The notes: generated from the letters alone by a model not told the origin. 64,000 nucleotides of DNA from an uncultured Bacteroidales bacterium (GCA_905233745.1 CAJODA010000006.1:5-64004), one strand, 5' to 3'; shown: positions 2,178 through 35,985, counted from the first letter of the stretch. Numbers and translations are program-made.

Positions 2178-2410
2178 TTGAAAAGAAAGCGAGTTTTCGC
2201 TTATCCGTCTCGGTAAACCTGGACAGTTTAAATGTTAGTACGGATATCGGAAATCAAGCTTGCCTATGATGTGTTTATTTGCCGCATAGATGGGGCTTGT
2301 TCTTCAGTATCTTACTAACTGGGAGTCCAGCCCTACCGGGAGGATGCTGTCGGATAACGGCTCCACTTTCTTTTTGTCTTGTTTTGAAAATTATAAACCA
2401 AAATTTCATC

Positions 2411-5400
2411 ATGATGAAAAAGATTTTACTGTTTACTTTGGCTTTGGCAAGCATTGTGTCTGCATTCGCCCAAACAACCATCACGCTGACATTCAACGGG
2501 CAGGACCAAAACAACACCCGTGTACAACTCGACAATGTCGTCATCCAGAATGTGACCCGAGGATGGACTGAGGCCATCTTCTTTCCCGACACCATTTACA
2601 CGCTCACCGTCGGAACGGGTGTGGCGGACTATCTCCTTCACAGCGGGATGCAAGTGATGCCCAACCCTTTTGATGGGAGAACGCAGGTCAACATCCATGC
2701 CGTCAAGAGAGAATCCGTGACGATGACATTGATGGATATCAACGGCAAGCGATGCGCCGAATACAAGGGCTTATTGTCTGAGGGCAACAACTATTTCGAA
2801 ATAGAGCTCGTCACCCCGCAAACCTACATTCTATCAGTGCAAACCACTGAGGGCACACGCAGTCTGAAAATGGTGAATACCGGCGGTGCCGGGCGTAACC
2901 AAATCAAGGAATCTGGGGTGAGTGGCAACGCCGTGCAGCTGAAGAGCACCAAAGCGCACACCTTCGAACTGGGAGACGAGATGCGCTACACCGGCTACAG
3001 CCAACAGAGCAATGGACTGATACCCAGTACGCCGATTACGCAGAATCAATATGAGAGCGAGACAATCACCTTGCATTTCACACTTGAAAATGATGCCGAG
3101 CTTCCCATTGTGGCTACAGTTGCAGCCAGCAATATCGGCATAAACACTGCCACCACGGGCGGCAACGTCTTCTCGGACGGTGGAGCGCCCGTCACCGCCA
3201 GGGGTGTGTGCTATAGTGTGACACCCAACCCCACCCTGTCGGAGAGCCACACCACGGACGGCACAGGCACCGGCGTGTTTACGAGCAATCTCACCAACTT
3301 GGTGGAGAACACCACTTATTATGTGAGGGCGTATGCTACTAATAGTGCGGGTACGACATACGGCAACGAGATAAGCTTCACCACGGAGGCGGGGTCCTCT
3401 TCGGGGAATGCCTGTCCCGGCACCCCAACCGTCACCGACTACGATGGCAACATCTACAATACCGTGCAAATCGGCACCCAATGTTGGATGAAGGAGAATC
3501 TGAGGACCACGCACTATGCCAATGGCGACCCCATTGCCGAAGGCATCACATACAGCTCCGAGATTCCTTATAGATACGCACCCGACGGCAATGCGGCTAA
3601 CGTGACCGCATACGGTTACCTTTACAATTGGCCTGCGGTGATGCATGGCGACAGCAGCAGCAATGCCAACCCCAGCGGAATACAGGGTGCCTGTCCTGCG
3701 GGCTGGCATGTGCCCAGTGCTACCGAATGGGACCAACTGGCCACTTACGTAAACAGCCATAGCGAGTTCTTATGCGGCGGCTACAACAACTACATTGCCA
3801 AAGCCCTGGCATCCAATATAGGATGGAACTATCATAACGTGAGCGATGCCTGCGCAGTATGCAACAACCTCACGCAGAACAACGCCACTGGATTTTCCGC
3901 CATGCCGGCAGGACAAAGCTATGGAATCAACCACTATGGATTTGGCGACATGGCTGTCTTCTCAAGTTCCACGTTGGAAGATGATGATGAAGTTGAAATG
4001 CGAGGATTCTGTTATGATGACCCTAATTTGACTCAATGGCTCTGCGATGCTGACGGCAATCTGGAGGAAGGTTATTCGGTACGTTGCGTACGAGGCGAAG
4101 TGAATTCTGGAGATCAACTTCCCAAAGTAATTACTTTAGGTGTGACGAACATCGGCACCAGCTCCGCTACCTGCTTGGGCAATGTCATCAACAGCGGGAC
4201 AGCAACCGTTTCTGCCAGAGGTTTTTGCTTTAGCACGGCCCCTCACCCCACTATTGCAGACTATCATACCACTGACGGTAATGGTCCTGGTGCGTTCATC
4301 AGTAGTCCGACAGGGTTGGCAGAAGGCACGATGTACTATTTTCGCGCATACGCCACCAGTAGTTTTGGTACAACATACGGCAGTGAAGGGGCATTCATCA
4401 CAACTAATCCCAACGACGGACAATCATGCACGGGCATGCCGACGCTCACCGACTATGACGGCAACATTTACAACACCGTACAAATCGGCACACAGTGCTG
4501 GATGAAGGAGAATCTGCGTACTACACACTATGCCAACGGGGACGTTTGTAACACGCCTTCTGGTTCTTCATACGACGACCAAGCCCCTTGGCGTTTTATT
4601 CCTAACAACAACTCTAACAACGTGGCTGCGTACGGATATCTCTACAATCTGCCCGCCGTATTGCATGGCTCTGTCGGTAGCACTGCCATCCCCAGTGGGG
4701 TGCGTGGCATTTGTCCCGTGGGCTGGCACATGCCAAGCCTTGCAGAATTCCAGTTGCTTTCTGCCTACCTAGGCAGTCGTAGCATGTACCTGTGCAACAA
4801 TTCCAATCTGAACACGGCCAAATCCTTGGCTGACTCTATAGGATGGGAAAATTATGACTTTTACAGCGGATGCTCTGTAGGATACAATCCATCACAGAAC
4901 AACACATCTGGATTTTCCGCTCGTCCCGCTGGTGACCGTTCAGGTTACTTTGGGGAAAAGGCTTGTTTTTGGACTGTCTCGACGTTTCAGAATAATAATT
5001 ATTATGAAACCTTAAGCGCAAATTATTTAGGACTTTACTATTCCTCTTCGAGTATTACAACATCATCTTCAAACAATAACGCTTTCTCTATACGCTGTGT
5101 ACGTGACGAATTCAACAGTGCAGCAACGTTACCCAATGTTACAACAGATTCGGTGGTTGTCATTTCAGAAGAGGTAGCTTCGTTAGCCGGCAAAGTGATC
5201 TCTGCTAACGGTGCTACAGTAACAGAGTATGGTATGTGCTGGAACACCTCTTCCAATCCTACTCTCGCAGGTAGTCATCGCGCTTTTGGGGATGGACTTG
5301 GTTCCTTTTCTGCCGTGGTTGGGGAATTCATCCCTGGTACCACCTATTATTTGCGTGCATACGCCACCAACAGTGCAGGAACTGGTTATGGCAACGAGTT

Positions 5401-8400
5401 GACTTTCACGATGCCATCGGCTGATAATCATGGCCAGCCATGTGTAGGCATGCCTACCGTAACCGATCACGAAGGCAATGTTTATAACACAGTGCAAATC
5501 GGCAACCAATGCTGGATGAAAGAGAACATGCGTTGCACCACCTCTCCAAAGGGGATACTCGGCAATGGTAACACACTTTACTATAATGACACTACATCTA
5601 TCATTCCGTTGGAAAAACGCGGACTGCTATATTCCTGGGAAGGTGCAATGGACACCACATTGTCTAATGTAAATTCACAAATATCTGTCTCAAACATCAG
5701 GGGAATTTGTCCAGAAGGATGGCATATCCCGAGCATGGCTGAATGGACAACATTACAAAACTTCGTAAACAGTCAAAGCGAATATCAGTGCGACAACATC
5801 AATAACTATATTGCCAAAGCTATAGCCTATCCTTACTACTGGAAGAATTACGACAATAACTGCGCCGTGGGTAATTCTCCGGCAAACAACAATGCCACGG
5901 GTTTTTCCACAATTCCCGCAGGGATACATGACGGTTCTGCTATCAACAGTTCGGCGAATTACGCATATTTTTGGTCAAGAACAACAACTGTTCATGCCAC
6001 CGCTAATCCCAGTCTTCATATCAGTTTCTTCTACGCTCGATATTTCTCATTAACCTATTCCAATACTACAGTGAACGTCGATGGCGAAATCAGCATGTTT
6101 CGCGGTTGTTCTGTTCGATGTCTTCGTGACATTGAAGTGACAACTAACGAAGCTACCAATGTAACAGTAACCTCTGCCACACTCAGCAGCAGCGTTTCCA
6201 AGCCCAGTAATACAACAATTACCACTCGTGGCTTCCAATGGAAAAAAACTACTGATTCTGTTTATACATCAGTGTCAAACCTCATGTCAGTAACAACTTC
6301 CCCGACAAGTATAACAATGTCACGTACCCTATCAGGGCTTGAAGCAAATACTTCCTATACATATAGGGGATACGTCACATGCAATGGTATTACCTATTAT
6401 GGTAACGAAGTATCTTTCACGACATTATCAGCTACTGTTCCCTCCGCGAACACCACAGACGCCACAAACGTAACGGCAACAACTGTCACACTCCATGGAA
6501 GTGTTTCCAATCCCGACAATGTAACGATATCATCTCGGGGCTTTGAATGGAAAATCTCTACTGCAAATGTCTACACAGTGACAAACATAACCGCAACAGG
6601 TGCTACGATGTCTCACATTCTTACTGGTCTGACGGCTAACACGCAATACATTTATCGTGCGTTTGTAACCACCACGGACAGTACAATCTATGGTAATGAG
6701 ATTTCTTTCACGACATTGGAGACATCTTTAGAGCCCTCCGCCACTACCTTTTCCGCAACTAACCTTACCTCCACTTCCGCCACCCTAAACGGCACCGTCT
6801 CCAATCCTGACAACGTGACTGTTACCGCGCAAGGTTTTGAGTGGAAGCCTAGTGATGCTTCCTCATACACACAGGTAATCGCTACTGGATCTACGATGAT
6901 ATACAATCTCACCAACCTCACAGAAAGCACTCAATATACCTATCGCGCATATGCAACAACTACCAATGGAACGAGCTACGGTGATGAAATATCTTTCACT
7001 ACTCTATCATCCTTAACCATCTTAATTGAGGATTTCTCCCGTATTACCGACAGTACTCCTTACACCATTTCCAACAATTTGAACAACTATACCCAGGTGC
7101 CTGGATGGACAGGCGACTGGGTATATCCGAGCAACGGCAAGGTAAAAATCGGAAAATCGGCACAAGCGGGCTATATTCAGACCCCACCAATTAATCTGTC
7201 AGGCAACAACGGCCAATTTTTGGTAACATTTGACGCGAAAGCTTGGCCTGGTGACGCTACCAGTCTCATCGTTGCTGTAAACGGTGTTCCTTATACGGTA
7301 AATGGTCTCAGCACCACAGCTTTCAACACGTTTTCCGTGCCATTCAGCGGTGGTACTTCTTCCACCGTCGTCAAGTTCCAAGGTTCACAAGAAACCCGTG
7401 GACGTTTCTACTTGGACAATATAATCATTACTGAATACGAACCAGGCCCTGATACCATCGCCCCATTTGTGACAAACCTTACCCCAATCACAAGCGATAC
7501 CCTTAGTGTTACATTCAACGAGAATCTTGACCCTTCATCTGCACAAACCACTTCAAACTACGTGATTGACAACAATATCACTATAACTTCCGCCACGCTG
7601 AACAACAATGTGGTCACATTGGCAGTATCGCCGGCATTGTCTGACAACACATACACATTGATTATCAATAATGTTTCTGACGTGAATGGCAACGTGAATT
7701 TGTTTCCCGACACAATTTGGTTCTCCTACGGCGTCAGTCCAGAATTTCACGTGGCCAACATCTCTGCCCTGCGTACAAAATTAGATTACACCGACGTTTA
7801 CAACTCCACTATATCCAATTTTGAATACAAGTTAACTGGCGAAGTAGTGGTTACCGCCGTTGCAGCATATAACAACCAGAAGATACTTCAGGATGCTACT
7901 GGCGCAATCCTGGTGTACGATCCGGATAACAGCTTAGGCTCCCTTGAAGTCGGCGATAAGGTGAAAGACCTATACGGCACACTGATCAACTACTACGGAT
8001 TCCTTGAATTCAAACCTACAAGAGCTTATGGTTCTCTTATCAGCATAAACCAAGATGTCACACCCTTAACCATCACTCTATCGCAACTCAACAACCCAAG
8101 CTTCATGATCCAGCACCAAGCTGAATTAATCAAGCTGAACAACGTGACATTCACTTCCACGGGAACCTTTGCTACACTCAACACTTACGGGATCACCCAG
8201 AACGGTATCACCACCAATGCTGTTTACCCATATTTCCAAGATGCCAACTTTATCGGTGCCAACATACCCACTGGTCCCGTCAATATCACTGGCTTCAGCT
8301 TTGGCACCAGCAAGATTGCTAACAACTTTTTTGACTTCCGCTACTTTATCGTGCCTCGTAATACGAGCGATTTCAGTTCCAGTGGATCAGTCTCGCAATC

Positions 8401-8647
8401 TCTATCCGAAAATGAAATTATTGTATATCCAAATCAAGACGGCGATATCCTCACGGTTATCCTTCCCGCCAACGAATTCCAGGCAACAGACATGTTCGTA
8501 TTTGACAACAACGGCAACCTCATTCTTACGCAACAAATCACTGACAACCATATTTCATTGGATGTGCAAAATCTTCCTGCCGGCAACTATTTCCTGCGTT
8601 TGAGCGACAGCAGTCACAGCGCAACTACGAAGTTCGAGAAGAGATAG
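2411..8647 (+). CDS. Giant (2079 aa) modular T9SS-secreted surface protein with three Fibrobacter-succinogenes-major-paralogous (FISH) lectin-like domains
   Basis: ORF 2279..8647, trimmed to MMKKILLFTLALASIVSAFAQ (signal peptide) at 2411. The FISH signature occurs three times (C..PTVTDYDGN.YNTVQIG.QCWMKENL...YGYLYNW...GICP.GWH.PS..EW..L...GFSA.PAG...FW....RCVRD). It also carries Ig-like repeats. The C-terminal ~78 aa (VYPNQDGDILTV...LPAGNYFLRLSD...TKFEKR) match the T9SS type A sorting domain (Por_Secre_tail). Confidence 0.9.
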   Translation: MMKKILLFTLALASIVSAFAQTTITLTFNGQDQNNTRVQLDNVVIQNVTRGWTEAIFFPDTIYTLTVGTGVADYLLHSGMQVMPNPFDGRTQVNIHAVKRESVTMTLMDINGKRCAEYKGLLSEGNNYFEIELVTPQTYILSVQTTEGTRSLKMVNTGGAGRNQIKESGVSGNAVQLKSTKAHTFELGDEMRYTGYSQQSNGLIPSTPITQNQYESETITLHFTLENDAELPIVATVAASNIGINTATTGGNVFSDGGAPVTARGVCYSVTPNPTLSESHTTDGTGTGVFTSNLTNLVENTTYYVRAYATNSAGTTYGNEISFTTEAGSSSGNACPGTPTVTDYDGNIYNTVQIGTQCWMKENLRTTHYANGDPIAEGITYSSEIPYRYAPDGNAANVTAYGYLYNWPAVMHGDSSSNANPSGIQGACPAGWHVPSATEWDQLATYVNSHSEFLCGGYNNYIAKALASNIGWNYHNVSDACAVCNNLTQNNATGFSAMPAGQSYGINHYGFGDMAVFSSSTLEDDDEVEMRGFCYDDPNLTQWLCDADGNLEEGYSVRCVRGEVNSGDQLPKVITLGVTNIGTSSATCLGNVINSGTATVSARGFCFSTAPHPTIADYHTTDGNGPGAFISSPTGLAEGTMYYFRAYATSSFGTTYGSEGAFITTNPNDGQSCTGMPTLTDYDGNIYNTVQIGTQCWMKENLRTTHYANGDVCNTPSGSSYDDQAPWRFIPNNNSNNVAAYGYLYNLPAVLHGSVGSTAIPSGVRGICPVGWHMPSLAEFQLLSAYLGSRSMYLCNNSNLNTAKSLADSIGWENYDFYSGCSVGYNPSQNNTSGFSARPAGDRSGYFGEKACFWTVSTFQNNNYYETLSANYLGLYYSSSSITTSSSNNNAFSIRCVRDEFNSAATLPNVTTDSVVVISEEVASLAGKVISANGATVTEYGMCWNTSSNPTLAGSHRAFGDGLGSFSAVVGEFIPGTTYYLRAYATNSAGTGYGNELTFTMPSADNHGQPCVGMPTVTDHEGNVYNTVQIGNQCWMKENMRCTTSPKGILGNGNTLYYNDTTSIIPLEKRGLLYSWEGAMDTTLSNVNSQISVSNIRGICPEGWHIPSMAEWTTLQNFVNSQSEYQCDNINNYIAKAIAYPYYWKNYDNNCAVGNSPANNNATGFSTIPAGIHDGSAINSSANYAYFWSRTTTVHATANPSLHISFFYARYFSLTYSNTTVNVDGEISMFRGCSVRCLRDIEVTTNEATNVTVTSATLSSSVSKPSNTTITTRGFQWKKTTDSVYTSVSNLMSVTTSPTSITMSRTLSGLEANTSYTYRGYVTCNGITYYGNEVSFTTLSATVPSANTTDATNVTATTVTLHGSVSNPDNVTISSRGFEWKISTANVYTVTNITATGATMSHILTGLTANTQYIYRAFVTTTDSTIYGNEISFTTLETSLEPSATTFSATNLTSTSATLNGTVSNPDNVTVTAQGFEWKPSDASSYTQVIATGSTMIYNLTNLTESTQYTYRAYATTTNGTSYGDEISFTTLSSLTILIEDFSRITDSTPYTISNNLNNYTQVPGWTGDWVYPSNGKVKIGKSAQAGYIQTPPINLSGNNGQFLVTFDAKAWPGDATSLIVAVNGVPYTVNGLSTTAFNTFSVPFSGGTSSTVVKFQGSQETRGRFYLDNIIITEYEPGPDTIAPFVTNLTPITSDTLSVTFNENLDPSSAQTTSNYVIDNNITITSATLNNNVVTLAVSPALSDNTYTLIINNVSDVNGNVNLFPDTIWFSYGVSPEFHVANISALRTKLDYTDVYNSTISNFEYKLTGEVVVTAVAAYNNQKILQDATGAILVYDPDNSLGSLEVGDKVKDLYGTLINYYGFLEFKPTRAYGSLISINQDVTPLTITLSQLNNPSFMIQHQAELIKLNNVTFTSTGTFATLNTYGITQNGITTNAVYPYFQDANFIGANIPTGPVNITGFSFGTSKIANNFFDFRYFIVPRNTSDFSSSGSVSQSLSENEIIVYPNQDGDILTVILPANEFQATDMFVFDNNGNLILTQQITDNHISLDVQNLPAGNYFLRLSDSSHSATTKFEKR
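3104..6130 (+). repeat. Three tandem ~330-aa intragenic modules, each one Ig-like domain plus one FISH domain (3104-4096, 4118-5107, 5129-6130)
   Basis: Repeated peptide blocks such as TARGVCYS/SARGFCFS/TEYGMCWN ... TTYYVRAYATNSAGTTYGNEISFTT, then CPGTPTVTDYDGNIYNTVQIGTQCWMKENLRTTHYANGD. The DNA at 3440-3536 versus 4447-4543 is ~85-87% identical by eye. Confidence 0.85.
6134..7006 (+). repeat. Three tandem ~95-aa Ig/Fn3-like intragenic repeats
   Basis: The block pattern ATNVT.T.ATL.G.VSNPDNVT...RGFEWK....Y........M...L.GL.ANT.Y.YRA...T....YGNEISFTTL occurs three times. Confidence 0.85.
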
Positions 8648-8916: not shown

Positions 8917-9014
8917 GTTTTACCATACAGAGCAGGTAACGAAGACTGTCAGCGTCGATGTTTTTGACAGTGACGAACAATATAAGACCGAGGTTTCACT
9001 TCGGTCTTTTTATT
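8917..9014 (+). ncRNA. Candidate ~95-nt small RNA, convergent with the 3' end of CDS 8996..9442
   Basis: Bounded by the -7 box at 8902-8909 and by a perfect 8-bp hairpin (AAGACCGA 8984-8991 / TCGGTCTT 9001-9008) followed by TTTATT. The T-run is on the plus strand only. There is no convincing ORF. This is a prediction only. Confidence 0.3.
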
Positions 9015-9442
9015 ATGTCAAAGGCCGAAAGCAACCACTTTTTCGTTTTCCCATCATCACTTTTTTCCACCGCCACGATAAATCGGAATGTCTTACTTTC
9101 AAACACTTTTTTTTGACCGTCTGACTTCTTCAAGTTGAAATTGCCGAATTGAACAACAATAGGGATGAAATCCTCCACATTAAATCCCAGTTTGTTAATA
9201 TCAATTTCGTGTTTGTCAATAATGTGGGCCAACCCATATCCCCTGTGCTTGATTGGGTCTGAGACCTCACCCCAAACAATGTCAATATCACCAATATCAC
9301 TACGATGCAGCGCCGCAATACATTCGCCATTCATTTTTTCACGAAGAAATCTAATGGCTTCCTTTGGCTTTCCTGCAAATTGCCTGTACAGAGGACCATA
9401 TTTCCCTGTTTCAACATTTGATTCTTCAATAGTTGTTTTCAT
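8996..9442 (-). CDS. Hypothetical 148-aa cytoplasmic protein; possibly a stand-alone domain of the kind found in phage/ICE polyvalent proteins (PBECR-like nuclease), very tentative
   Basis: A clean ORF with its own -7 box. The motifs IDIVWGEVSD...GYGLAHIIDKHE resemble polyvalent-protein nuclease modules from memory. It has no signal peptide. Confidence 0.55.
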   Translation of the reverse strand: MKTTIEESNVETGKYGPLYRQFAGKPKEAIRFLREKMNGECIAALHRSDIGDIDIVWGEVSDPIKHRGYGLAHIIDKHEIDINKLGFNVEDFIPIVVQFGNFNLKKSDGQKKVFESKTFRFIVAVEKSDDGKTKKWLLSAFDIIKRPK

Positions 9443-9495
9443 AATTGATTAAAATTTGTTTGGAATTATACCTATTGTTAATGATAATTTAACGG

Positions 9496-9503
9496 CAAAA
9501 ATA
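9496..9503 (-). promoter_or_regulatory. -7 box (TATTTTTG on the minus strand) for CDS 8996..9442
   Basis: Exact TAnnTTTG match, 54 nt upstream of the ATG at 9442. Confidence 0.45.
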
Positions 9504-9634
9504 CATCACAAAAAACTTTTGGCTAGAGTTTTGCGGAAATAATTATCAGTGTAATAATCAATGTATTAGCATTTTACTCTGTGTAAAATTAAGAATTGAT
9601 TGTTAACGGGTAGTGATTGATATGGGAAAAATGT
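9496..9634. repeat. Copy A of a ~140-bp direct repeat (partner at 11203-11342)
   Basis: The core 9553-9634 aligns with 11259-11342 at ~80% identity by eye (TAATAATCA.T.T.TTAG.A.TTTAC...GTGTAAAATTAAGA.TTGATTGTTAACG.GT.G...TGAT.TGGGAAAAAT). Weaker similarity continues through the -7 boxes. Confidence 0.75.
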
Positions 9635-9635
9635 T

Positions 9636-10114
9636 GGAGGTTCCGCCGCCGTTGGCGGCGGAATGGTGCTGGTTCAGCGGTGCGTTTGTGGTGTTTCGCG
9701 GCGGGTTGGTTCCATACCTCGGCGCATGTGTGTCGCGCGCCGCGACCCATCGCACAGGCCGTCCCGCACCCAGGGGTTGACACCCCTGGTTACAGATATG
9801 TAACGCCTACGGCGTTAGTGCTGACAGCGTTGACGTTGTCGGAGATTGAACCTGTCGATGGTGACTGTGCTTGTCGAAGTCACCGGCAATAATAAGCAGG
9901 TTAACCGGTATTCCTGCCACCAGTCCAACGCCGTAGGCGTTGCATATTATAGCCAGAGATGTCAATCTCTGGGATTGTGGTATATGATGACCCCGTGTGC
10001 GTAATCGCGGCGCGGGGTCGCGTGCACCGAAGCATAATGTTTGCCCGCCGCGAAACGTCCATCATTATCCACCAACCCACCACCATTCCGCGCGACATGT
10101 CGCGCGGAATCTCC
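9636..10114. repeat. ~480-bp imperfect palindrome: two inverted, diverged copies (9636-9817 and 9927-10114) of a hairpin-rich GC-rich element around a 110-bp core
   Basis: Arm matches are listed as left arm / right arm.
- 9636-9668 / 10081-10114.
- GTTTCGCGGCGGG 9693-9705 / CCCGCCGCGAAAC 10044-10056.
- Hairpin 9770-9789 / hairpin 9953-9972.
- AACGCCTACGGCGTT 9802-9816 / AACGCCGTAGGCGTT 9927-9941.
A central hairpin GGTGAC...GTCACC lies at 9860-9884. Confidence 0.8.
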
Positions 10115-10143
10115 ACCGATGAATAGTATTCAGAGAACACCCA

Positions 10144-10232
10144 AGGGCGCGGACGTGGGGCTGCGCTCTTTTGTTTTGTGTGGGGGTTCATGCTGGAGGT
10201 TCCGCCGCCGTTGGCGGCGGAATGGTGGGTGG
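10144..10232 (+). repeat. Second copy of the 'terminator-like hairpin + T-run + GGAGGTTCCGCC hairpin' module seen at 8694-8817
   Basis: AAGGGCGCGGACGTGGGGCTGCGCTCTTTTGTTTTGTGTGGGGG matches 8693-8738. The perfect hairpin TTCCGCCGCC-GTT-GGCGGCGGAA at 10200-10222 is identical to the one at 9641-9663. Confidence 0.75.
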
Positions 10233-10269
10233 CTTGATAAGGCGAAATAAGCTAAATAGTTAGTTTTTA

Positions 10270-11180
10270 TTATGGTCTAAGCTCCATGATTTCCTCGCTG
10301 CTCAGGCCGGAAACGCGTACTATAGTCTCTATTGCGATACCTTCCGCAATCATGTTTAGTGCTAATTGGCGCTTTTCTGCCATTTTCCCTTCGTTCAATC
10401 CTTCGATCCGCCCCTTTTCCATACCAATCTCAATACCCTCTTCTATGCCGTCTTCACGGGCGCAGATGATGGCCCCTTGCACGTCTTTGTACTCCAAAAC
10501 GCTCTTCTTGTATTCTTTTCGTTCCATGTTGGTTAGTTTGTTATCCTGCATTCCTCTATGAACTTTCGGAAAACGCCCTGTTCCTCTGCGCCGTAGTCCC
10601 GATTGGTGCTGCCGCCGATGGAGGTGAGCAGCTCGAGCCATCTGCGCGTGTGGGCATTATCCAAAATCTTGTCTTTAACGGCTGCAAATTTACACAATTC
10701 GACGAAAAAAAAGGTGGTTTTGTCGCTGAAAATTTTATTGGTCTCGTCCTTGAGCATAACCTTGTGGAAATAACGGTCATTGCCTCTGAACTCCGGTGCG
10801 TTGTAGTCCAGCAGGTTGAAGGAATAGACAGAAGGAATTGCATAGTCGCTTTCTCCTTTTTCCATTTCCCTGCTGATGACCCTGCTCACGTACGAGATGA
10901 TTCTGTCGGCGAAGAAGGGCTGTCGAGCCCGTTGCATCTCGATGATGAATCTGTCGCCGTTTTGGTTTTCGCAATAGATGTCGAAAATCACCCTCTTGTC
11001 TTCCGGCCTCTCGCCGAACATCTCTGTCTGCAGGAAGGTGATGTCGGTGATGATGCCGACTTCATCGGAAATGCTGGAATTGAGGAAGTCAATGAGGATG
11101 TCCTTGTTGTTTTCGGAGGCGGAGATCCGCTTGAAGCCGAAATCGGACAGCGGATCGAAAAATATCATGTCTTTCTTCAT
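10270..11180 (-). pseudogene. Rpn-family (YhgA-like, PD-(D/E)XK 'putative transposase') gene split over two frames
   Basis: ORF 10533..11180 (MKKDMIFFDPLSDFGFKRI...IIEMQ...) carries the N-terminal nuclease part. ORF 10270..10641 carries the family's typical C-terminal repeat (EDGIEEGIEIGMEKGRIEGLNEGK...GLSSEEIMEL) in another frame. The frame change lies near 10530-10560. Confidence 0.7.
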
Positions 11181-11202
11181 AGTAAAATGTTTTAGGTTGC
11201 CA

Positions 11203-11210
11203 CAAAGATA
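11203..11210 (-). promoter_or_regulatory. -7 box (TATCTTTG on the minus strand) for the Rpn-family gene
   Basis: Exact TAnnTTTG match, 23 nt upstream of the ATG at 11180. Confidence 0.45.
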
Positions 11211-11342
11211 CAACACGAAAACACTTTTGTCAAGAATTTTGTGAGAAATGTTTTTAATATAATAATCAGTATGTTAGAAATTTACGAGGTGTAAAATTAA
11301 GATTTGATTGTTAACGAGTGGAGGCTGATTTGGGAAAAATAT
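11203..11342. repeat. Copy B of the ~140-bp direct repeat (partner at 9496-9634); overlaps the last ~10 codons and the stop of mpg
   Basis: See copy A. The mpg stop codon (TAA, 11311-11313) lies inside the shared GATTGTTAACG block. Confidence 0.75.
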
Positions 11343-11922: not shown

Positions 11923-12014
11923 ACAGCAGGAATAATAGTGTCGCAAAGGAACAAAAAAAACGAATATCCTGCAACGGAAAGCGTGCTTAAATCGTTAATA
12001 GGTTGTTTAAAGCA

Positions 12015-12569
12015 ATGTCTGAAAAAGAAGCAAAACTGATAAAGGGTTGTGTGGCTGGCGACAAAGCCTGCCAAAAGCAGCTGTATCTGGATTACGGAGG
12101 CATGATCAAGAGCATCTGTACACGATACACTGCCAATCCCGATGAAGCTGAAGATCTTTTTCATGACACGTTCATATTCATACTCGTCAACTTCAAAAAA
12201 TACAACAACATCACCTCACTGGGAGCCTGGCTCCGGCGCATCACCATCAACAAGGCTATCGACCACTACCGCAAAACCTCCCATAACAGGATCGCATCGT
12301 TAGAGGAGATGGAATACGAGCCTGTTGTTGATGCCGAACCGCTCAACGAGGCCCTTACGATGAACAAGATTGTCGCATTCATCAACGAACTGCCCGACAA
12401 GTACCGCACGGCCTTTAACCTGTACGTGATTGACGATGTGGAGCAGGAGGAGATCGGGCGGATAATGAACGAAACCCCGACTAATGTCAGAACCCTGATT
12501 TTCAGGGCTCGCAATATTTTACAAAAGAAAATCAACCGATACCTGAATCACGAAGAGTTTAAGATATGA
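12015..12569 (+). CDS. ECF-type RNA polymerase sigma-70 family factor
   Basis: Region 2 (DEAEDLFHDTFIFILVNFKKY...LGAWLRRITINKAIDHYRK) and region 4 (LPDKYRTAFNLYVIDDVEQEEIGRIMNETPTNVRTLIFRARNILQKK) are both present. The start was trimmed to MSEKE. Confidence 0.85.
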   Translation: MSEKEAKLIKGCVAGDKACQKQLYLDYGGMIKSICTRYTANPDEAEDLFHDTFIFILVNFKKYNNITSLGAWLRRITINKAIDHYRKTSHNRIASLEEMEYEPVVDAEPLNEALTMNKIVAFINELPDKYRTAFNLYVIDDVEQEEIGRIMNETPTNVRTLIFRARNILQKKINRYLNHEEFKI

Positions 12570-13429
12570 AAACGTTGAGAGAACAGTTTGAACAATATCG
12601 TATTCCGGTGGATGAGCGCGGTTGGGAGAAAATCGCCAACGACCCGTCCGTCCGGAAATACAACCGTGCACGCGCCGCGCGGAGGGCTGTCTTGTACAGT
12701 ACAGCCGCGTTAGTGGCTGCGGCGGCCATAGTTACCGCCGTGCTGCTCACCCGCCCGCACAGCGAGCCTGCACCGGCCTGGACACCGGCAGACACACAAA
12801 CCGCCGCACCTGCCATTCCCGATTCGACGCCAACCAGCACACCAGCCCCGGCAGCCGACACGCCGGAGCCCGTTGCTCCTGCGAAGACTCCTGCACCGGC
12901 CACACAGCACGCCGCTTCACGTTCCATCCCTGCACCAGCCCCAAACACGCCCGTCACGACAACAGCGACCCAAGACAAGGACGCTCAGCTCCCTGCCATC
13001 GGCACGCTGCAACCGACTGTTCATCCCTCCACCCCCATCCTGCCCGACCTTACCCCAGCAACCGCTGATCCGAGAAACTCTGAAGATACGGCAAGCCTGC
13101 GCACTGAGTCCGACACCACCCATTCGCAACAACCGCAAATTGCCGACAAACTCTTCTTCGCACCCAACGCATTCTCTCCCAACAGCGATGGCGTCAATGA
13201 CATATTCTATGTCTTTGCCAATACGGAATACACCGATTTTGAACTTAACGTTTACACCCGGAACGGAGACCATGTTTTCCAATCCCGCCATATTGAAAAC
13301 GGCTGGAACGGACGACGGAACGGCATCGGCGACCTGCTGCCGCAGGGTGTCTATGTCTATACCATTAAATACCGGACCACTGACCACACATCCGGTGTGG
13401 AAAAAGGCCAAATACTTCTCATTCGATAA
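12566..13429 (+). CDS. Anti-sigma-like single-pass membrane protein with a Pro/Thr/Ala-rich linker and a T9SS type B (gliding-motility-associated) C-terminal domain
   Basis: Its start overlaps the sigma gene stop (ATGA). It has a ~41-aa charged N-terminus and a TM helix VLYSTAALVAAAAIVTAVLL (12689-12748). A low-complexity linker spans 12752-13136. The C-terminus is FFAPNAFSPNSDGVNDIFYVF...NGWNGR....LPQGVYVYTIKY......EKGQILLIR (13151-13426). Confidence 0.75.
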   Translation: MKTLREQFEQYRIPVDERGWEKIANDPSVRKYNRARAARRAVLYSTAALVAAAAIVTAVLLTRPHSEPAPAWTPADTQTAAPAIPDSTPTSTPAPAADTPEPVAPAKTPAPATQHAASRSIPAPAPNTPVTTTATQDKDAQLPAIGTLQPTVHPSTPILPDLTPATADPRNSEDTASLRTESDTTHSQQPQIADKLFFAPNAFSPNSDGVNDIFYVFANTEYTDFELNVYTRNGDHVFQSRHIENGWNGRRNGIGDLLPQGVYVYTIKYRTTDHTSGVEKGQILLIR

Positions 13430-13435
13430 ATCTGC

Positions 13436-14746
13436 ATGAACACTCTGGATCGCAAAACTCCCCCACCCGCACAGCCTATCACAAAACTGTCACTAACAGC
13501 CCCCGAACGCACTTCTTTGGAGAATGGCATACCCGTCTATACCCTATTCAACGGACAACTGGACCTCATCCACATCCTCCTTAATGTTCGCGCCGGCATA
13601 CTTCATGAAGAGCATAAGCACGTCTCTCACTTTGCCTATTCGCTACTTAAGGAGAGCTCAAGCAGGTACTCCGCCACGGAGACTGCCGACCTTCTGGACT
13701 TCTACGGGGCCCACGTCACCGTTTCGGGCAATCTGGACCGTACCACTATTGCCATCTCCATTCCAGCCAATAATGTAACCCAGATACTGCCCACCATCTT
13801 CGATTTTCTGGCACGACCGCAATATCGCCAAGACCGGTTGGAAATCTACCAGAGCCTTAAGATCAAGGATTTGGAATACAACATGCAGAAAACTGATGTC
13901 AGGAACACTCAACTGCTGCTGCACGCTGTGTTCGGCGACAGTCGCACAGCCGGTGTCTTCTCCACCCGCGAGAACCTGCAGGCGGTCACGCTGGAACAAA
14001 TGTACGAATTCCACCGGCAAACCTTCTGCGCCGAGAACCTGACGCTCTTTCTTACAGGGAATATTGACAAGGATATTTCGGCCTGCATCCGCGATTTGTT
14101 CTCGCAAGTGCCGCACGGCACAGCCTCAGCTCCGATACTCGATTTGGAACTACCGGCCGACCCTACCCGTATCATCGCCGAGCAGATGCCCGGAAGCGTG
14201 CAATCCTCCATCGCCCTAAGTCTGGTGAAAACAGGATATAATGCTGGTGACCGACGCGAATTTTCGTTCCTGTCCACCATAACCGGCGGGTATTTCGGTT
14301 CACGCCTCATGCAGAACCTTCGCGAACGCAACGGCTACACCTACGGCGTGTCCGCGGGTTCTGTTTATTTCGGCAACCAGGGATTGTTCATCATCAACAG
14401 CGATGTGAACGCCGACCATACACAGGCTGCCCTTGACGCCTGCTTTGAGGAGCTGAAACGGCTGCAGGATGAACCCGTCGGTGACGAAGAACTGGAAACA
14501 GTTCGCAACTACCTTTTGGGCGATCTGCTACGAGATGTGGACAACTCTGTCTCCTATCTGAAGAAATATGCCTACTGGAAATTCTTCGGCCATGATGAAC
14601 ACGAATTCCAATACATGGTGGAAGTCATACGGAATATGAAGGCTGACACACTGTCGACAATGGCAAAAAAATATTTTGATTACAATAATTTTATGCAAAT
14701 TATCGTTGGTGAAACTCGGAACTTAAGACGGACATTTACCAAATGA
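13436..14746 (+). CDS. Peptidase M16 (insulinase/pitrilysin) family homologue, probably non-catalytic
   Basis: The length and N-terminal layout are typical of M16. The position of the HxxEH zinc motif reads HFAYS (13628-13642). Confidence 0.65.
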   Translation: MNTLDRKTPPPAQPITKLSLTAPERTSLENGIPVYTLFNGQLDLIHILLNVRAGILHEEHKHVSHFAYSLLKESSSRYSATETADLLDFYGAHVTVSGNLDRTTIAISIPANNVTQILPTIFDFLARPQYRQDRLEIYQSLKIKDLEYNMQKTDVRNTQLLLHAVFGDSRTAGVFSTRENLQAVTLEQMYEFHRQTFCAENLTLFLTGNIDKDISACIRDLFSQVPHGTASAPILDLELPADPTRIIAEQMPGSVQSSIALSLVKTGYNAGDRREFSFLSTITGGYFGSRLMQNLRERNGYTYGVSAGSVYFGNQGLFIINSDVNADHTQAALDACFEELKRLQDEPVGDEELETVRNYLLGDLLRDVDNSVSYLKKYAYWKFFGHDEHEFQYMVEVIRNMKADTLSTMAKKYFDYNNFMQIIVGETRNLRRTFTK

Positions 14747-16833
14747 AAAAACTTTTCATATTCATATCATTCATTCTTCTCAGCTTCTATGGTTTTGCCA
14801 TAGAACCGCCGAAGCTCCAGTGTATCGAGCAGCTCATCAATCCCAGAGAGTTGCGCATCACCTGGTCTTGGAATGATATGAGCAACGTGTCCATAAATGA
14901 TGAATACACCTTCATCATCAACAATGTGGAGGTCAGCACCTCTGTGCACCCGCATCCAGACAACACCATATACCGGTCATCCACCACTATTATCTTAAAT
15001 GACAACCAATTGAGCAACCATTACACCTGCCAGATTCATGCAACGAATACTGTTACAGGCGAAGCATGCATGTCGAATGCCATGAGCACCATACTGCTTA
15101 CCGTGACACCATACGACCTGCAGGGCGACAGCACGGCAGCGTTTCTGCAATGGGATGCCGTAAGCTCCTCCATCGATGGCGGTTCCTGGGACAATGTCTA
15201 TCACATTTACAAAAAACGGAGTTTTGAGCCTGACTTTGGTGCCACCCCCATCGGCTCCGTGCCCACCACCGGTGATCTCACCTATATAGACCCTTCGGAT
15301 GTATGTCACAACTACATCTCCTATCAGGTGGGCATCACCAATCACATCAACACAGCCGGAGGCAGCTCCTGCGTCTTCAAGTCCAACATCCAAACGGTAT
15401 TCTTGAACGACAGCATTCTTCCCTCCGCACCTATCCTTGACAGCATTTCCGTTACAGAAGACAACCATGTTGTGATGGGATTCCATGCCCCAGACCCGTA
15501 TATGATGTGCTATCCGGTTTACTATCTGGATGGCAGCATCCGCCTGCCACTGCACACGGTGTATGATGCAACCTATTGGATGGATGCCAGTGTTAACCCC
15601 AACGAGGTAAGCCGCGAGTATTTCATTGCCGTGCTGGACTCGTGCAACAACAGTTCACACCAGACCGACAGCGGTCAGTGTAACATCCGCCTGAGCCATC
15701 CTACCACCGATGCCTGCCACAGAACCGCGCAACTCTCCTGGAACGCTTATAAGAACATGCACGGCGGGGTAGGTTCTTACACCATATTACTGAGCGAGGA
15801 CAACGGCATATCATACAACGCCGTGGGCAACACCACCGGTACTTCGTTCACGCTTTCAGATTTGCAACTTAACACCGCATACCGAGTGTTTGTCAGGGCG
15901 AACAACACAGACAACAGCATCACATCCAGCAGTAATCGGGTAAACTTCTCTATTGATGCGGAAGAGTCTGATGACATGACGTACATCCGTCATGTGTCGG
16001 TAATGGACAACCGTTATATCTCCATATTGGTGCACACCAGCGGTGATGAATATCCTTTCAACACCATCACTTTGCAACGGAGCGAGAATGGACAGGATTT
16101 CGAAGACCTGGCAACCCTCCCCTATCACAATGGCACGGAATATGAATTCATGGACAGCACCGCCCAATTCAACAAAAAAGTCTATTATTACCGTACGTAC
16201 GTCATCAGTTCCTGCAACATTCCCGCAGGATACTCCAACATTTCCCACAACATCCTATTGACCGGAACAACCTCCTCCGCCCACGACTGCAACCTGGAAT
16301 GGAACAATTATGGGACATGGAACGGTGACATCAACCATTACTCGGTTAGTCGAAAAACGGAGTACGACACTGTTTTTCTGGAATTGACCGGATCCATCGT
16401 ACCGCGCCTGCACAACACCTACGGTGACGATGTCTCCATGCTGTTCCAGCAAGGCTCATTGTTCACCTACTACGTCACTGCACACGAAACTTTGAACGAA
16501 TATGGATTTCAGGACGAAAGCATCTCCAACCATGTGACCCTGCAACAGGAATCCAGCATGATTATCCCCAATGCCTTTTCACCGAACCAGGACGGGCACA
16601 ATGACATATTCCTCCCATCCAACGCTTTTGTGTCCAGTTCCAATTATGAGCTTAGAATAATTTCCAGATGGGGGAAGACGGTATTTAGGACCTGTAATCC
16701 CACAGAGGGATGGGATGGTCGTGACATGAATGGTGAAAACGCCCCTGTCGGAGTTTACGTTTACATCATCAATTATATGAACACTCAGGACAAGGCCGTA
16801 CAGGTGCGCGGAAGCGTAACCCTGCTCCGATAA
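14743..16833 (+). CDS. T9SS type B cargo protein with several Fn3/Ig-like beta domains
   Basis: Signal peptide MKKLFIFISFILLSFYGFA. The C-terminus is IIPNAFSPNQDGHNDIF...EGWDGRDMNGENAPVGVYVYIINY...VRGSVTLLR, the gliding-motility-associated C-terminal domain. Its start overlaps the M16 stop (ATGA). Confidence 0.8.
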   Translation: MKKLFIFISFILLSFYGFAIEPPKLQCIEQLINPRELRITWSWNDMSNVSINDEYTFIINNVEVSTSVHPHPDNTIYRSSTTIILNDNQLSNHYTCQIHATNTVTGEACMSNAMSTILLTVTPYDLQGDSTAAFLQWDAVSSSIDGGSWDNVYHIYKKRSFEPDFGATPIGSVPTTGDLTYIDPSDVCHNYISYQVGITNHINTAGGSSCVFKSNIQTVFLNDSILPSAPILDSISVTEDNHVVMGFHAPDPYMMCYPVYYLDGSIRLPLHTVYDATYWMDASVNPNEVSREYFIAVLDSCNNSSHQTDSGQCNIRLSHPTTDACHRTAQLSWNAYKNMHGGVGSYTILLSEDNGISYNAVGNTTGTSFTLSDLQLNTAYRVFVRANNTDNSITSSSNRVNFSIDAEESDDMTYIRHVSVMDNRYISILVHTSGDEYPFNTITLQRSENGQDFEDLATLPYHNGTEYEFMDSTAQFNKKVYYYRTYVISSCNIPAGYSNISHNILLTGTTSSAHDCNLEWNNYGTWNGDINHYSVSRKTEYDTVFLELTGSIVPRLHNTYGDDVSMLFQQGSLFTYYVTAHETLNEYGFQDESISNHVTLQQESSMIIPNAFSPNQDGHNDIFLPSNAFVSSSNYELRIISRWGKTVFRTCNPTEGWDGRDMNGENAPVGVYVYIINYMNTQDKAVQVRGSVTLLR

Positions 16834-16842: not shown

Positions 16843-18265
16843 CTAATCGCGTAAACAACGGACAGCGTAACAATAGGACTTACTGCTGTTACTGGACGGA
16901 TACACTCCGCTGTTGTTATAATAGAGTCCCCAGGTTTTACCCTTGTCCGACGTCTGTCCAGAATGTCGAATCCATACCCAATGAGGAGAAAGCCCCGTTT
17001 CCAAAGAAGCCTTCAGGATAAGCGGTGAAACCGAGTGCATTATTGCTTTCCATATTGTTGCCCGCAGCGCAAAGGCTGCTATTGGAAGTCCAGCCCGTTG
17101 TAGATGCAAACGCCTTGGCAACATTCAGGGACGAGTAATTGCAAAAGTATTCCTCTTTGGTTTTGACATAATTCACCAATGCAGACCATTCCGCATTGGA
17201 GGGCACGTGCCATCCTTGAGGGCAGATGCCTCGCCTGCCATCCGGGAAAACAGCACTCACAGCCTGACTGCTTGCGGTTTCCACACTAGTTTCACCGGAC
17301 ACTGTGTTGAACGTATCCACGACCGCATTCCAATTGTATAGCACACCATAGTTCAGCGCTGCATAGGTGGTACTGTCATTATTATACCAACGTGCAATTT
17401 TTCCGCTAAATGAATATTGCGATGGGGTGACATTCAAGAGATATGTGCCCGTAGTGGGAGAGGTCAAAGCCCGCATACTCTGGGCTGTCCAACACTGTGG
17501 ACCGACTTGGATGGTGGGGTAAACATTCCCCTCGTGATCGGTAACCGTCGGCATATTGGAGCAGGGTATCCCGTCTTGGAAAAAGACCAAAGCAATAGTG
17601 TCATCCTCCATCTGCTCTTGGGTAACAATCTCACTTACGCGCATTTCACCCTCTATGGTAGCAAAGCCTGTGTATCTCATCTCATCACCCAGCACGAAAA
17701 GAGCTTCCGATTCAAACATCTGCTTTTTCATATAATCTTGGCCAGATTCCATATCCGGATGCCCCACCAAAGCTATTCTGTTAGCATCCCCATAGCCCAC
17801 GTTCACCAGCTTGCAACTTTTGGACCCACGCTCTGTCTGAATGCTGACAAAATAGATTTGAGGAGTCGTCAATGAGATGGCAAACGCGTTGGTTCCAGAC
17901 TGCACAACGCCTGAATATTCGGCACACAACCGGCCTTGTACATCCGTAACCTTCAGACGAGCCGGCCCTTCCTGCATATTTCCCACGCACAAAACAGCAT
18001 TGCCGACAAAAGGATTCGGGACAATCAAAACATCACGCCAAAAATCATTATCATCTACGCCAACAGAAACCAAAAGTATCATCTCAGTATCCGGATAGAT
18101 AATCGTCTCAGCCCATTCCCGGGTAAGATTTTCGACGCGCACACTATCCAACTGGAAATATGCATTGCCTTGGTCCTGCCCTTTGAACGTAAGAGACAGA
18201 GTGTTTTGGGCAAACAACCCGTAAACCATTATAAAAATTACACAAAAAAAGAAAAGTTTTTTCAT
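16843..18265 (-). pseudogene. Frameshifted paralogue of the giant surface protein (N-terminal domain plus one FISH domain)
   Basis: ORF 16937..18265 ends ...STFWTDVGQG*. The rest of the FISH domain (TSDKGKTWGLYYNNSGVYPSSNSSKSYCYAVRCLRD*) continues in the adjacent frame as ORF 16843..17124. The frame change is at about 16950-16965. Confidence 0.7.
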
Positions 18266-26258: not shown

Positions 26259-27203
26259 TTAAAACTCCCAGAGATCGCTCTCGAAAGTACGCAACCGCTC
26301 AGTGATCTTTTCAGATTCAATGCGTTGGTCGCGAGAATTGGCTATGTAGTCCTGAATATCACGGTCATACACATTGGCTTCCTTGTAGATATAACTGGCG
26401 AAATCGCGTTTCCAAGTAATAAGGTCATCGTAAGAAAGACGCTGAGCGTTATTCTTTACATTGTAAACCTCTTGCTTGGCGAGGAAGGGTCTGAGCTCAT
26501 TGTAATAAATGTAGCCTACTCTCTTCTTCGTCATAGTACCTCTCACCTCGTTTTCATCAGAGCCGCCTTCACCACCGTCATAATCAAATGATGAAGAGTT
26601 GGCACGCTCATGCTCGATGATAGGTTCAATCTCCAGAATCTGGACATAAAATCTGGAAGCTTGCTTGTCGAAGTACCAGATTTCCTTTACGTTGTAGGAG
26701 ATAACCTGTTTGGGTTCATACTCTACGACCATCTCTTTGGTACCAATCTCCTCACCCGTCTCCAGGTCAATTTCTGGAATCTGAGAGACCTCAGACAGGT
26801 TGCCTCTGATTTCATCACGAGAAAAGGGCAGAGTGCACATCTCATCGGAATATATTGTAAGCACACCTTCTGTCTTTTCGGGATTGGCCATATCAATGGC
26901 GTCGAATATAGTTTGTGACAGACTTCTCCATGTTCCCTTCGTTTCTGTCGGGAAATAGAGCGGATGGTTCACTTTTTCGCGCAGATCAATGGTTCTCCAA
27001 ATGGTATAGTAGTACATCACGTCAGCCTGACGGACAGGAGCATAGGGGATTGGGTCTGAAAACTCACCCACATCCACCTGTTCCCAGGCAAACTCAACGG
27101 GTTTGCGTATAGGCTGGCCCATGGTGCTACCTTCTTCGTCCTCTTGTGCAAACGCAAATGAGGCAGCAAACAATCCTAATAACAATAAACCAAACTTTTT
27201 CAT
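26259..27203 (-). CDS. porN: T9SS ring component PorN/GldN
   Basis: Last gene of the conserved gldK-L-M-N order. It has a signal peptide (MKKFGLLLLGLFAASFAFAQ) and a size of 314 aa. Confidence 0.85.
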   Translation of the reverse strand: MKKFGLLLLGLFAASFAFAQEDEEGSTMGQPIRKPVEFAWEQVDVGEFSDPIPYAPVRQADVMYYYTIWRTIDLREKVNHPLYFPTETKGTWRSLSQTIFDAIDMANPEKTEGVLTIYSDEMCTLPFSRDEIRGNLSEVSQIPEIDLETGEEIGTKEMVVEYEPKQVISYNVKEIWYFDKQASRFYVQILEIEPIIEHERANSSSFDYDGGEGGSDENEVRGTMTKKRVGYIYYNELRPFLAKQEVYNVKNNAQRLSYDDLITWKRDFASYIYKEANVYDRDIQDYIANSRDQRIESEKITERLRTFESDLWEF

Positions 27204-27224
27204 AATAAATTTATTTTTAATTGA

Positions 27225-28856: not shown

Positions 28857-28903
28857 TTTCTAAATTATTTTAGTTAAAATTAGTAAATGATGAAATGATT
28901 AGA

Positions 28904-29623: not shown

Positions 29624-29674
29624 TTTTTAATGATTTAATTTAGGTTAATGATTTTATTGATAAATAGTTAATTT

Positions 29675-31105: not shown

Positions 31106-31154
31106 TTTATTGCAATTTATATTTTTTCTAACGGGATTAAGTCTATTTTATTTT

Positions 31155-35910: not shown

Positions 35911-35957
35911 TGGGTAAAGAAAAAGATTTTTTATTAACTGACAATAATCAAATTTCG

Positions 35958-35965
35958 TATTTTTG
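35958..35965 (+). promoter_or_regulatory. -7 box TATTTTTG upstream of the transketolase subunit gene
   Basis: Exact TAnnTTTG match, 21 nt upstream of the ATG at 35986. Confidence 0.45.
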
Positions 35966-35985
35966 CACGGCAAATTTTTTACGAA

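Follow-up and report, generated by a model that had tools for sequence, protein, structure and literature searches.

An ECF sigma factor operon from uncultured Bacteroidales whose anti-sigma-like membrane partner ends in a type IX secretion sorting domain

Why should the apparent partner of a sigma factor of the extracytoplasmic function (ECF) type end in the sorting signal of a protein secretion system? The question is raised by four genes at positions 12015-16833 (+ strand) of a DNA stretch from an uncultured Bacteroidales bacterium (GCA_905233745.1, CAJODA010000006.1:5-64004). We refer to the whole 64-kb stretch as the window and to the four genes as the cassette, which is the region analysed here. 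[quoted passage not shown] An operon that pairs a sigma factor with a membrane-anchored partner bearing a type IX signal suggests a switch tying expression to the T9SS. With its sigma factor, its tethered and CTD-bearing candidate anti-sigma factor, and a presumed cargo encoded by gene 4, the cassette is a compact candidate for a secretion signal that is physically wired to a transcription factor.

The original prediction, which was made from the sequence of the window, had described four co-oriented and tightly coupled genes, and direct reading of the DNA agrees with this description at each junction. Gene 1 (12015-12569, 184 amino acids [aa]) and gene 2 (12566-13429, 287 aa) share an ATGA stop/start overlap at 12566, 6 nt (ATCTGC) separate gene 2 from gene 3 (13436-14746, 436 aa), and gene 3 is joined to gene 4 (14743-16833, 696 aa) by another ATGA overlap, at 14743, with all four genes on the + strand. 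An ECF-type promoter, consisting of TGCAAC (-35) and CGTTA (-10) separated by 17 nt, is located at 11970-11997, 18 nt 5' of the sigma ATG. All family loci inspected have the same element (TGCAAC-N16/17-CGT(T/C)) at a distance of 25-45 nt 5' of the start codon of the sigma gene, and the exact pattern GCAACN{16,17}CGTYW, whose sole match on either strand of the window is the one at 11970-11997, is found 5' of the sigma gene in loci L001-L006 and L011-L015. Since chance predicts about one match per window at any position, a match within 60 nt 5' of the sigma gene would be expected at a rate of ~1e-3 per locus, yet it recurs from locus to locus. No second copy of the promoter was found 5' of gene 4 or of the T9SS genes in the window and loci searched, and no terminator-like site is present on the + strand inside the four-gene block. 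A conserved promoter solely 5' of the sigma gene together with the lack of an internal terminator is the pattern expected of an autoregulated ECF operon. The expected picture is therefore one in which genes 1-4 would be transcribed as a single operon from the promoter at 11970-11997, with autoregulation by gene 1 presumed.

By its domain content, gene 1 is an ECF sigma factor, as had been predicted. It consists of sigma-70 regions 2 and 4 only, within the ~180-200 aa typical of the group, and both regions score above cut-off (Sigma70_r2/PF04542, 54.7 bits; r4_2/PF08281, 46.4 bits), as does the ECF superfamily model TIGR02937 (83.3 bits versus a cut-off of 42.9). Its nearest solved structure is Bacillus subtilis SigW. 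Membership in NF058625 (GFO_1088/PG0214, SigCH), the specific NCBIfam model with the best score, was considered and rejected, as its 83 bits compare with a cut-off of 130 bits. Gene 1 also scored below the cut-off of every other specific model in NCBIfam, and by these models it falls into no named ECF group, such as the ECF21 to which the Dma systems belong.

Gene 2 has both the position and the topology of an anti-sigma factor, in keeping with the original prediction. Residues 1-41 (12566-12688) form a conserved and basic module (11 K/R versus 6 D/E) that is predicted to be cytoplasmic and is the putative sigma-binding segment. The only strongly hydrophobic stretch of the protein follows directly (residues 42-60, Kyte-Doolittle peak 2.2) and belongs to a single predicted transmembrane (TM) helix at residues 42-62 (12689-12751). 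In the AlphaFold2 (AF2) model, short helices at residues 4-9 and 17-24 precede one continuous helix at residues 27-61. In the family alignment, conservation extends over the first 45 residues and the hydrophobic helix and is seen again in the CTD, while the intervening linker is not conserved. W20 is invariant and P14, I23, N33, R39, and Y44 are nearly so, which yields the signature Phi-x-x-(P)-(V/P)-x-(E/D)-x-x-W-x-x-I, followed by a K/R cluster and then the helix. In 90% of 78 family members, the TM segment starts at residue 40-50. The conserved 41-aa n-region, the ~21-aa hydrophobic helix, and the lack of a conserved A-x-A cleavage site mean that this N-terminus does not look like a signal peptide, and its hydrophobic segment is better described as a predicted signal anchor; the n-region of the gene 4 signal peptide, by comparison, measures 3 aa versus the 41 aa of gene 2. 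Hydropathy, the positive-inside rule, and the AF2 helix all agree upon the predicted N-in single-pass topology.

An exhaustive search of 1.84 billion representative proteins with a 66-column profile of the N-terminus and helix returned 62 matches (~60 clusters), almost all of which are 283-315 aa in length. The CTD family CHU_C was present in 45 of the 57 matches scanned, the remainder resembling fragments or low-complexity noise. The N-terminal module is thus essentially confined to the TM-CTD architecture, rather than being a promiscuous anti-sigma domain, and no class I, II, or III anti-sigma domain is recognizable in it among the curated models. A word-indexed search of a 5.8-billion-protein set with a broad 44-column N-terminal profile was uninformative (55 candidates, one fragment).

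Two further observations concern this short module. A 555-aa protein (P0091) that does not have the family architecture contains the N-terminal signature as a tandem array of three (…LPVSELDWTAIQ…, …LPVTEEDWNAIQ…), which hints that the motif may be a small autonomous binding unit. The window also encodes a second ECF sigma factor of 185 aa (36949-37506, + strand), 3' of which lies a gene for an anti-sigma-like protein of 103 aa that combines a short N-terminus with a K/R cluster and a TM segment. The next gene product is helical, secreted, and 173 aa long (the unit spans 36949-38399, + strand), followed at 38436-40874 by an 812-aa protein that appears by eye to be an outer membrane protein of the TonB-dependent receptor type. 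The similar layout of this second sigma/partner pair suggests that short N-terminal anti-sigma segments are usual in this organism.

Beyond the membrane helix, gene 2 was predicted to consist of nothing but a P/T/A-rich linker and a type B CTD, and this composition was confirmed. The tether (residues 63-195, 12752-13150) is predicted to be periplasmic and disordered, with a predicted local distance difference test score (pLDDT) of ~30 over residues 61-191 of the AF2 model, and residues 64-195 (132 aa) include 26 P, 24 A, and 23 T (55% P/A/T). Its low-complexity sequence is not conserved, but its length is: among the 78 members the median is 147 aa, the 5th-95th percentile range is 138-157 aa, and there are two outliers. 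A gene 2 relative in L092, among the longer ones, has an additional Ig-like insert. We estimate a contour length of ~50 nm for the linker, which would be enough to span the periplasm (~20 nm wide) and, were the linker stretched, also the outer membrane.

The C-terminal segment of gene 2 (residues 196-287 plus the stop codon, 13151-13429) exceeds the cut-offs of both relevant models over residues 199-286 of 287, with 71.8 bits for CHU_C/PF13585 (cut-off 27) and 48.2 bits for the type B model TIGR04131 (cut-off 35). A profile match at each end of the protein had been proposed as a check of the original prediction; in the Pfam and NCBIfam scan only the C-terminal models were matched, so that the sorting domain was identified while the anti-sigma models were not. 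AF2 folds the CTD as a beta-sandwich with pLDDT >90, it retains the sequence blocks typical of type B CTD alignments, and it ends the protein in every family member (0-3 residues past the end of the hidden Markov model [HMM]). On an HMM built solely from the CTDs of other large type B proteins, the median score was 100 bits for gene 2 CTDs, 104 bits (range 82-124) for held-out cargo CTDs, and 90 bits for gene 4 CTDs, with the caveat that the comparison CTDs had been retrieved with gene-2-derived patterns. By these features the gene 2 CTD appears to be a canonical type B sorting domain, genuine and complete. Identity between CTDs is 52% within the gene 2 or the gene 4 lineage and 38% between the two, whether or not they come from the same locus, and by this measure each of the two genes has its own, separate orthologous lineage of CTDs. 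Apart from 8glk_D, a type A CTD within the translocon, a Foldseek search with the gene 2 model returned only generic Ig-like matches.

The original prediction depended in part upon the arrangement being conserved in relatives, and we found that it is. Full-length homologues of gene 2 number ~33, measure 285-308 aa, extend down to 31% identity, and all carry CHU_C, and the cassette recurs at ≥10 distinct loci with differing flanks. The order of sigma factor, TM-CTD protein, M16-like gene, and ~700-aa fn3/CTD protein is found among unrelated flanking genes in L003, L004, and L005/6, as well as in L007/8, a divergent member (N-terminal profile E ~1e-4), in L091, and in L092, the last of which was reached by way of its gene 4 homologue, at only 30% identity. 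L009 and L010 lack the M16 gene and keep the other three, which defines the core of the cassette as the sigma factor, the TM-CTD protein, and the CTD cargo. Across the 90 loci compared, an ECF sigma gene stood upstream of all 17 gene 2 family members versus none of ~100 other type B CTD open reading frames (ORFs), and the two genes overlap by 4 nt in 11 of 16 contiguous pairs. The negative control for this count came from a scan of GTDB genomes with the full-length family alignment, in which 74 of 80 loci held generic type B CTD proteins; the scan added no new breadth to the gene 2 family. Among GTDB species representatives, full-length relatives were confined to metagenome-assembled genomes (MAGs) of uncultured Bacteroidales, and several of these MAGs derive from the fore-stomachs of ruminants, with samples that were ruminal or came from buffalo reticulum or goat omasum. 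Two loci depart from the pattern. In L075, an insertion of ~470 nt that is rich in tandem repeats (5530-6000) lies between the sigma gene and the gene 2 homologue, there is neither an M16 gene nor a co-oriented fn3 gene, and two convergent genes downstream encode type B CTD proteins of 673 and 815 aa. In L093, a gene-4-like protein of 26% identity stands alone.

The remaining two genes were also correctly described by the original prediction, gene 3 as an M16 homologue with a degenerate active site and gene 4 as a multi-Ig protein that has its own type B CTD. Gene 3 matches Peptidase_M16_C with 111 bits, its N-terminal M16 domain is sub-threshold, and HFAYS replaces the zinc-binding HxxEH motif, at which position a catalytic paralogue reads HFVEH. 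HxxEH was absent from all eight orthologues checked, none of which has a signal peptide. The best PDB match is 3amj_B, a "zinc peptidase inactive subunit" of a heterodimeric M16B peptidase, and gene 3 is accordingly annotated as a putative cytoplasmic, non-catalytic M16B-type subunit. We considered gene 3 as an envelope site-1 protease and rejected this role, as it has neither a signal peptide nor a zinc site. No catalytic M16 partner is encoded in the 64-kb window; catalytic M16 genes (HLFEH or HFVEH) occur just upstream of the cassette in L092 and 4 kb upstream in L001. Directly 5' of the L092 cassette (1029-2847) lie an extra ECF sigma gene (184 aa) and then the catalytic M16 gene (HLFEH), an arrangement that suggests a dedicated, sigma-linked catalytic partner for the inactive subunit.

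Gene 4 begins with a typical signal peptide (MKKLFIFISFILLSFYGFA), contains fn3 domains, and ends in a CTD at residues 607-696 (TIGR04131, 45.2 bits; PF13585, 67.3 bits). The AF2 model (mean pLDDT 85) is all-beta, with a chain of approximately six Ig/fn3 domains followed by the CTD, and Foldseek recovered only tandem fn3/Ig ectodomains. Together these results indicate a non-enzymatic surface rod, which is presumably the regulated T9SS cargo of the operon. The gene 4 family is large and well conserved.

How might these parts work together? We propose that gene 2 would serve as a trans-envelope tether, in which the ~41-aa cytoplasmic N-terminus would hold the sigma factor, the single helix would anchor the protein in the inner membrane, and the disordered linker of conserved length (~147 aa) would cross the periplasm to present the type B CTD at its far end. 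The T9SS could then grip this CTD by way of a PorP/SprF-type shuttle at the SprA/Sov translocon. The anti-sigma factor would thereby act as a tethered pseudo-substrate, and its docking or attempted export might strain or expose the tether such that regulated proteolysis removes the anti-sigma factor. The freed sigma factor would transcribe its own operon, including the gene 4 cargo, and cargo would therefore be made when a secretion route is available. More speculatively, gene 3 and a catalytic partner encoded elsewhere may dispose of the ~50-aa sigma-bound remnant, a suggestion based upon the action of M16 chamber peptidases on peptides of up to ~65 residues.

The components of this proposal differ in strength. 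Gene 2 is probably the cognate anti-sigma factor of gene 1, and we lean slightly towards its CTD being recognized by the T9SS or a PorP-type shuttle. The full chain, in which the T9SS engages an anti-sigma tether, the anti-sigma factor is removed, and the operon with its type B cargo is expressed, is the explanation that we favour, but it is put forward more tentatively, as possible rather than probable; the steps that we infer are sigma binding, engagement by the T9SS or PorP, proteolysis, which sign the regulation has, and what gene 3 does. Support for a link to secretion comes from the second type B CTD protein, gene 4, which always accompanies the cassette even when gene 3 is missing. A more elaborate version is doubtful: a FlgM-like checkpoint of the T9SS in which a tethered decoy is pulled by the PorP shuttle and the proton-motive-force-driven translocon, the mechanical force on its fixed-length tether sets off intramembrane proteolysis, a dedicated cytoplasmic M16B peptidasome that has gene 3 as the non-catalytic half clears the ~50-aa stub, and the fn3-rod cargo is made only when a channel is free. 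If it were true, gene 2 would be the first anti-sigma factor to be read directly by an outer membrane secretion machine.

Several considerations weigh against our proposal. Residues 1-62 of gene 2 match no anti-sigma model in Pfam or NCBIfam, and every member of the gene 2 family comes from an uncultured MAG. The cassette contains no porP/sprF-like gene, even though type B cargo genes often adjoin a gene for their shuttle (PMC12618676). A shared shuttle for gene 2 and gene 4 was also sought through co-variation of their CTDs and was rejected, since the 38% identity is the same either way and there is no locus-specific signal. No architecture with an outer membrane beta-barrel was found among the N-terminal profile matches, where the comparison to Dma proteins was by description only. 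The sign of regulation could also be the opposite of the one proposed, and a polypeptide that stays threaded through the outer membrane once its CTD leaves the translocon presents a difficulty.

The original prediction further stated that no such switch had been described. This was too strong, because PorA-PorY-SigP (PMC12152298), Dma1 (PMC10927553), BtrA (PMC10732220), and FlgM are all analogues. Full-text literature searches found no anti-sigma factor that bears a T9SS CTD. To our knowledge, the only T9SS cargo or capacity feedback described in Bacteroidota is PorA-PorXY-SigP, in a single species. In Porphyromonas gingivalis, PorY is bound by the CTD of PorA, which activates PorY-PorX-SigP and does so even if PorA is retained at the inner membrane (PMC12152298; also PMC7712824). 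Our proposal shares with that system a T9SS CTD that doubles as a signalling element controlling an ECF sigma factor. However, PorA is a free cargo with a type A CTD and acts as the ligand of a histidine kinase, whereas here a type B CTD is covalently part of a putative anti-sigma factor. The cassette also has no two-component system, and according to the promoter search its output is a cargo gene rather than T9SS components.

The closest architectural parallel is with the Dma proteins of Bacteroides. In Dma1, 40 N-terminal residues suffice to bind its ECF sigma factor, and these are followed by a TM segment, a long disordered periplasmic region, and a C-terminal domain located in the outer membrane (PMC10927553). 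Both families belong to Bacteroidota, adjoin an ECF sigma gene, and share a layout, predicted in the case of gene 2, in which a cytoplasmic N-terminus of ~40 aa leads into one inner membrane helix, then a long disordered stretch through the periplasm, and finally a C-terminal module bound for the outer membrane. The distal module of Dma is an 8-stranded OMP_b-brl_2 barrel, whereas that of gene 2 is a beta-sandwich sorting domain, and gene 2 is not a Dma member since it lacks this defining barrel. Moreover, the N-terminal modules have no detectable similarity in the profile search, which retrieved no barrel-type proteins. Dma has targets related to vesiculation, whereas this operon includes a T9SS cargo and an M16-like gene, and Dma1 occurs in nearly all Bacteroidota, in contrast to the narrow gene 2 family of uncultured Bacteroidales. 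We found no Dma-like gene in the ~1 Mb of Bacteroidota DNA fetched.

The proposed logic is otherwise that of FlgM, the secreted anti-sigma factor of the flagellar type III secretion system (T3SS), which acts on sigma-28. In Bordetella, the secreted anti-sigma factor BtrA similarly couples T3SS secretion to transcription through BtrS, an ECF sigma factor (PMC10732220). In both cases the anti-sigma factor is itself a secretion substrate and transcription follows secretion competence, but FlgM and BtrA are soluble proteins of the cytoplasm that a T3SS exports in their entirety. Gene 2, by contrast, has a predicted inner membrane anchor, and an outer membrane translocon could reach it from the periplasm alone. 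In FecR-type signalling, an anti-sigma factor that crosses the membrane once touches an outer membrane protein with its periplasmic C-terminus, and regulated proteolysis relays the state of that outer membrane protein to the sigma factor (PMC9249621, PMC11637429). Our proposal shares both features, except that gene 2 has no FecR domain, the cassette has no TonB-dependent transducer, and the presumed outer membrane partner is a T9SS shuttle or translocon. As for ordinary type B cargo such as SprB/SprF or PG1035/PorP, type B CTDs bind PorP-like outer membrane barrels and appear to stay intact (PMC9143113), and they need cognate shuttles (PMC12618676). Gene 2 has the same CTD family with an equal score, and gene 4 resembles such cargo. 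Ordinary cargo proteins have a cleavable Sec signal peptide and a functional passenger, whereas gene 2 has a conserved 41-aa cytoplasmic segment with a signal anchor and a disordered linker as its sole "passenger". It is therefore not an ordinary type B cargo, as it has no cleavable signal peptide. By analogy, the system would work like a hybrid that combines the architecture of Dma, PorA-style regulation of an ECF sigma factor by a CTD, and a FlgM/BtrA-style secretion substrate as the anti-sigma factor.

Could the same architecture serve some other purpose? Gene 2 might be an envelope-spanning anti-sigma factor like Dma, for which the T9SS is only the route of delivery or anchoring to a PorP-like barrel or the surface. 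The signal for release would then lie elsewhere, such as surface or outer membrane perturbation or contact, or docking would protect the anti-sigma factor, in which case a lack of PorP or the T9SS, or their saturation with cargo, would free the sigma factor and regulation would have the opposite sign. The layout does agree with that of Dma1, from the short N-terminus, which binds the sigma factor in Dma1, and the TM segment to the long disordered region and outer membrane C-terminal module (PMC10927553), type B CTDs anchor proteins to PorP-like barrels, apparently uncleaved (PMC9143113), and a linker of conserved length suits a static tether. In addition, outer membrane partners reportedly protect the anti-sigma factor in systems with TonB-dependent transducers (PMC11637429). 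We nevertheless consider this explanation unlikely, as a type B CTD cargo is always co-encoded, which points to a link with secretion over a generic envelope signal, and most members have no sensor domain besides the CTD.

It is improbable that the T9SS is uninvolved and that a CHU_C-type domain was simply co-opted as the periplasmic Ig-like sensor of a conventional anti-sigma factor. The fold is indeed a generic beta-sandwich with Foldseek matches mostly to unrelated Ig-like domains, and the extracytoplasmic domains of anti-sigma factors are highly diverse (PMC7826278), but a co-opted sensor could drift and sit anywhere in the protein. The gene 2 CTD instead keeps the conserved type B blocks, has a cargo-like score above that of the gene 4 CTD, and always forms the protein end, nor would a periplasmic sensor need a disordered spacer of ~147 aa and conserved length. 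Similarly improbable is the view that gene 2 is not an anti-sigma factor at all, but rather a small sigma-regulated T9SS substrate with an unusual cleaved signal sequence, such as one that caps or assists PorP or the gene 4 rod, while the sigma factor is controlled by other means. Its lack of a match to any curated anti-sigma model would fit with such a role, PG1035, which carries a type B CTD, has been proposed as a PorP cap (PMC9143113), and certain ECF groups have no anti-sigma factor (PMC7826278). This view fails to account for a 41-aa n-region that is conserved over ~60 clusters with an invariant W20 and never found outside the TM-CTD architecture, for a ~21-aa hydrophobic segment with no conserved A-x-A site, or for a translational coupling to the sigma gene that is near-universal. 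Another sigma gene in the window is likewise followed by one for a small protein of the same short N-terminus, K/R cluster, and TM layout.

If the proposed T9SS-sensing mechanism is true, the envelope-spanning design of anti-sigma factors exemplified by Dma would gain a second way to the outer membrane, and gene 2 would offer a natural probe of type B CTD recognition in the periplasm as well as a portable, secretion-responsive genetic switch. If the coupling to the T9SS is wrong, gene 2 would still represent a new and sharply delimited anti-sigma-like family, and the cassette would still be a conserved regulon for an fn3-rod surface protein in abundant uncultured Bacteroidales of the rumen and gut.

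The window itself encodes T9SS core components, all on the - strand: gldN (26259-27203, GldN, 193 bits), gldM (27225-28856, GldM domains 1-4), gldK/porK (29675-31105, FGE-sulfatase of the GldK type, 156 bits), and porP/sprF (31155-32207, PorP_SprF, 116 bits). A 239-aa ORF between gldK and gldM (28904-29623, - strand) occupies the gldL position and is assigned by position only. The presence of porP, gldK, gldM, and gldN indicates that the organism has T9SS machinery, which is presumed to be the one recognizing type B CTDs. These genes (26259-32207) lie ~9.4 kb downstream of the cassette and outside of its operon, and their proximity to it is not conserved at other loci. Directly upstream of porP, a 1267-aa ORF (32464-36267, - strand) has no Pfam match at E<=1e-3 and may encode an uncharacterized T9SS-associated protein.

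Other T9SS-related proteins flank the cassette. One is a large T9SS cargo of 2122 aa (2279-8647, + strand), in which fn3 domains and a type A CTD accompany three Fib_succ_major domains. On the other side, a 442-aa protein (16937-18265, - strand) has a C-terminal Fib_succ_major domain, and its residues 82-153 resemble Por_Secre_tail (type A CTD). This location close to the N-terminus is an unusual site for a T9SS sorting domain. Its homologues are 475-477 aa, and the start of this ORF may be mis-set. Finally, the segment at ~8996-11216, upstream of a divergent 3-methyladenine glycosylase gene, varies among strains with an identical gene 2 protein. The window resembles L005/L006 at this position, with PBECR1-like and PD-(D/E)XK Rpn-type genes, and L001 has instead RecR, a catalytic M16, and a radical SAM gene in the equivalent region. 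From this comparison, the segment looks like a strain-variable island beside the cassette.

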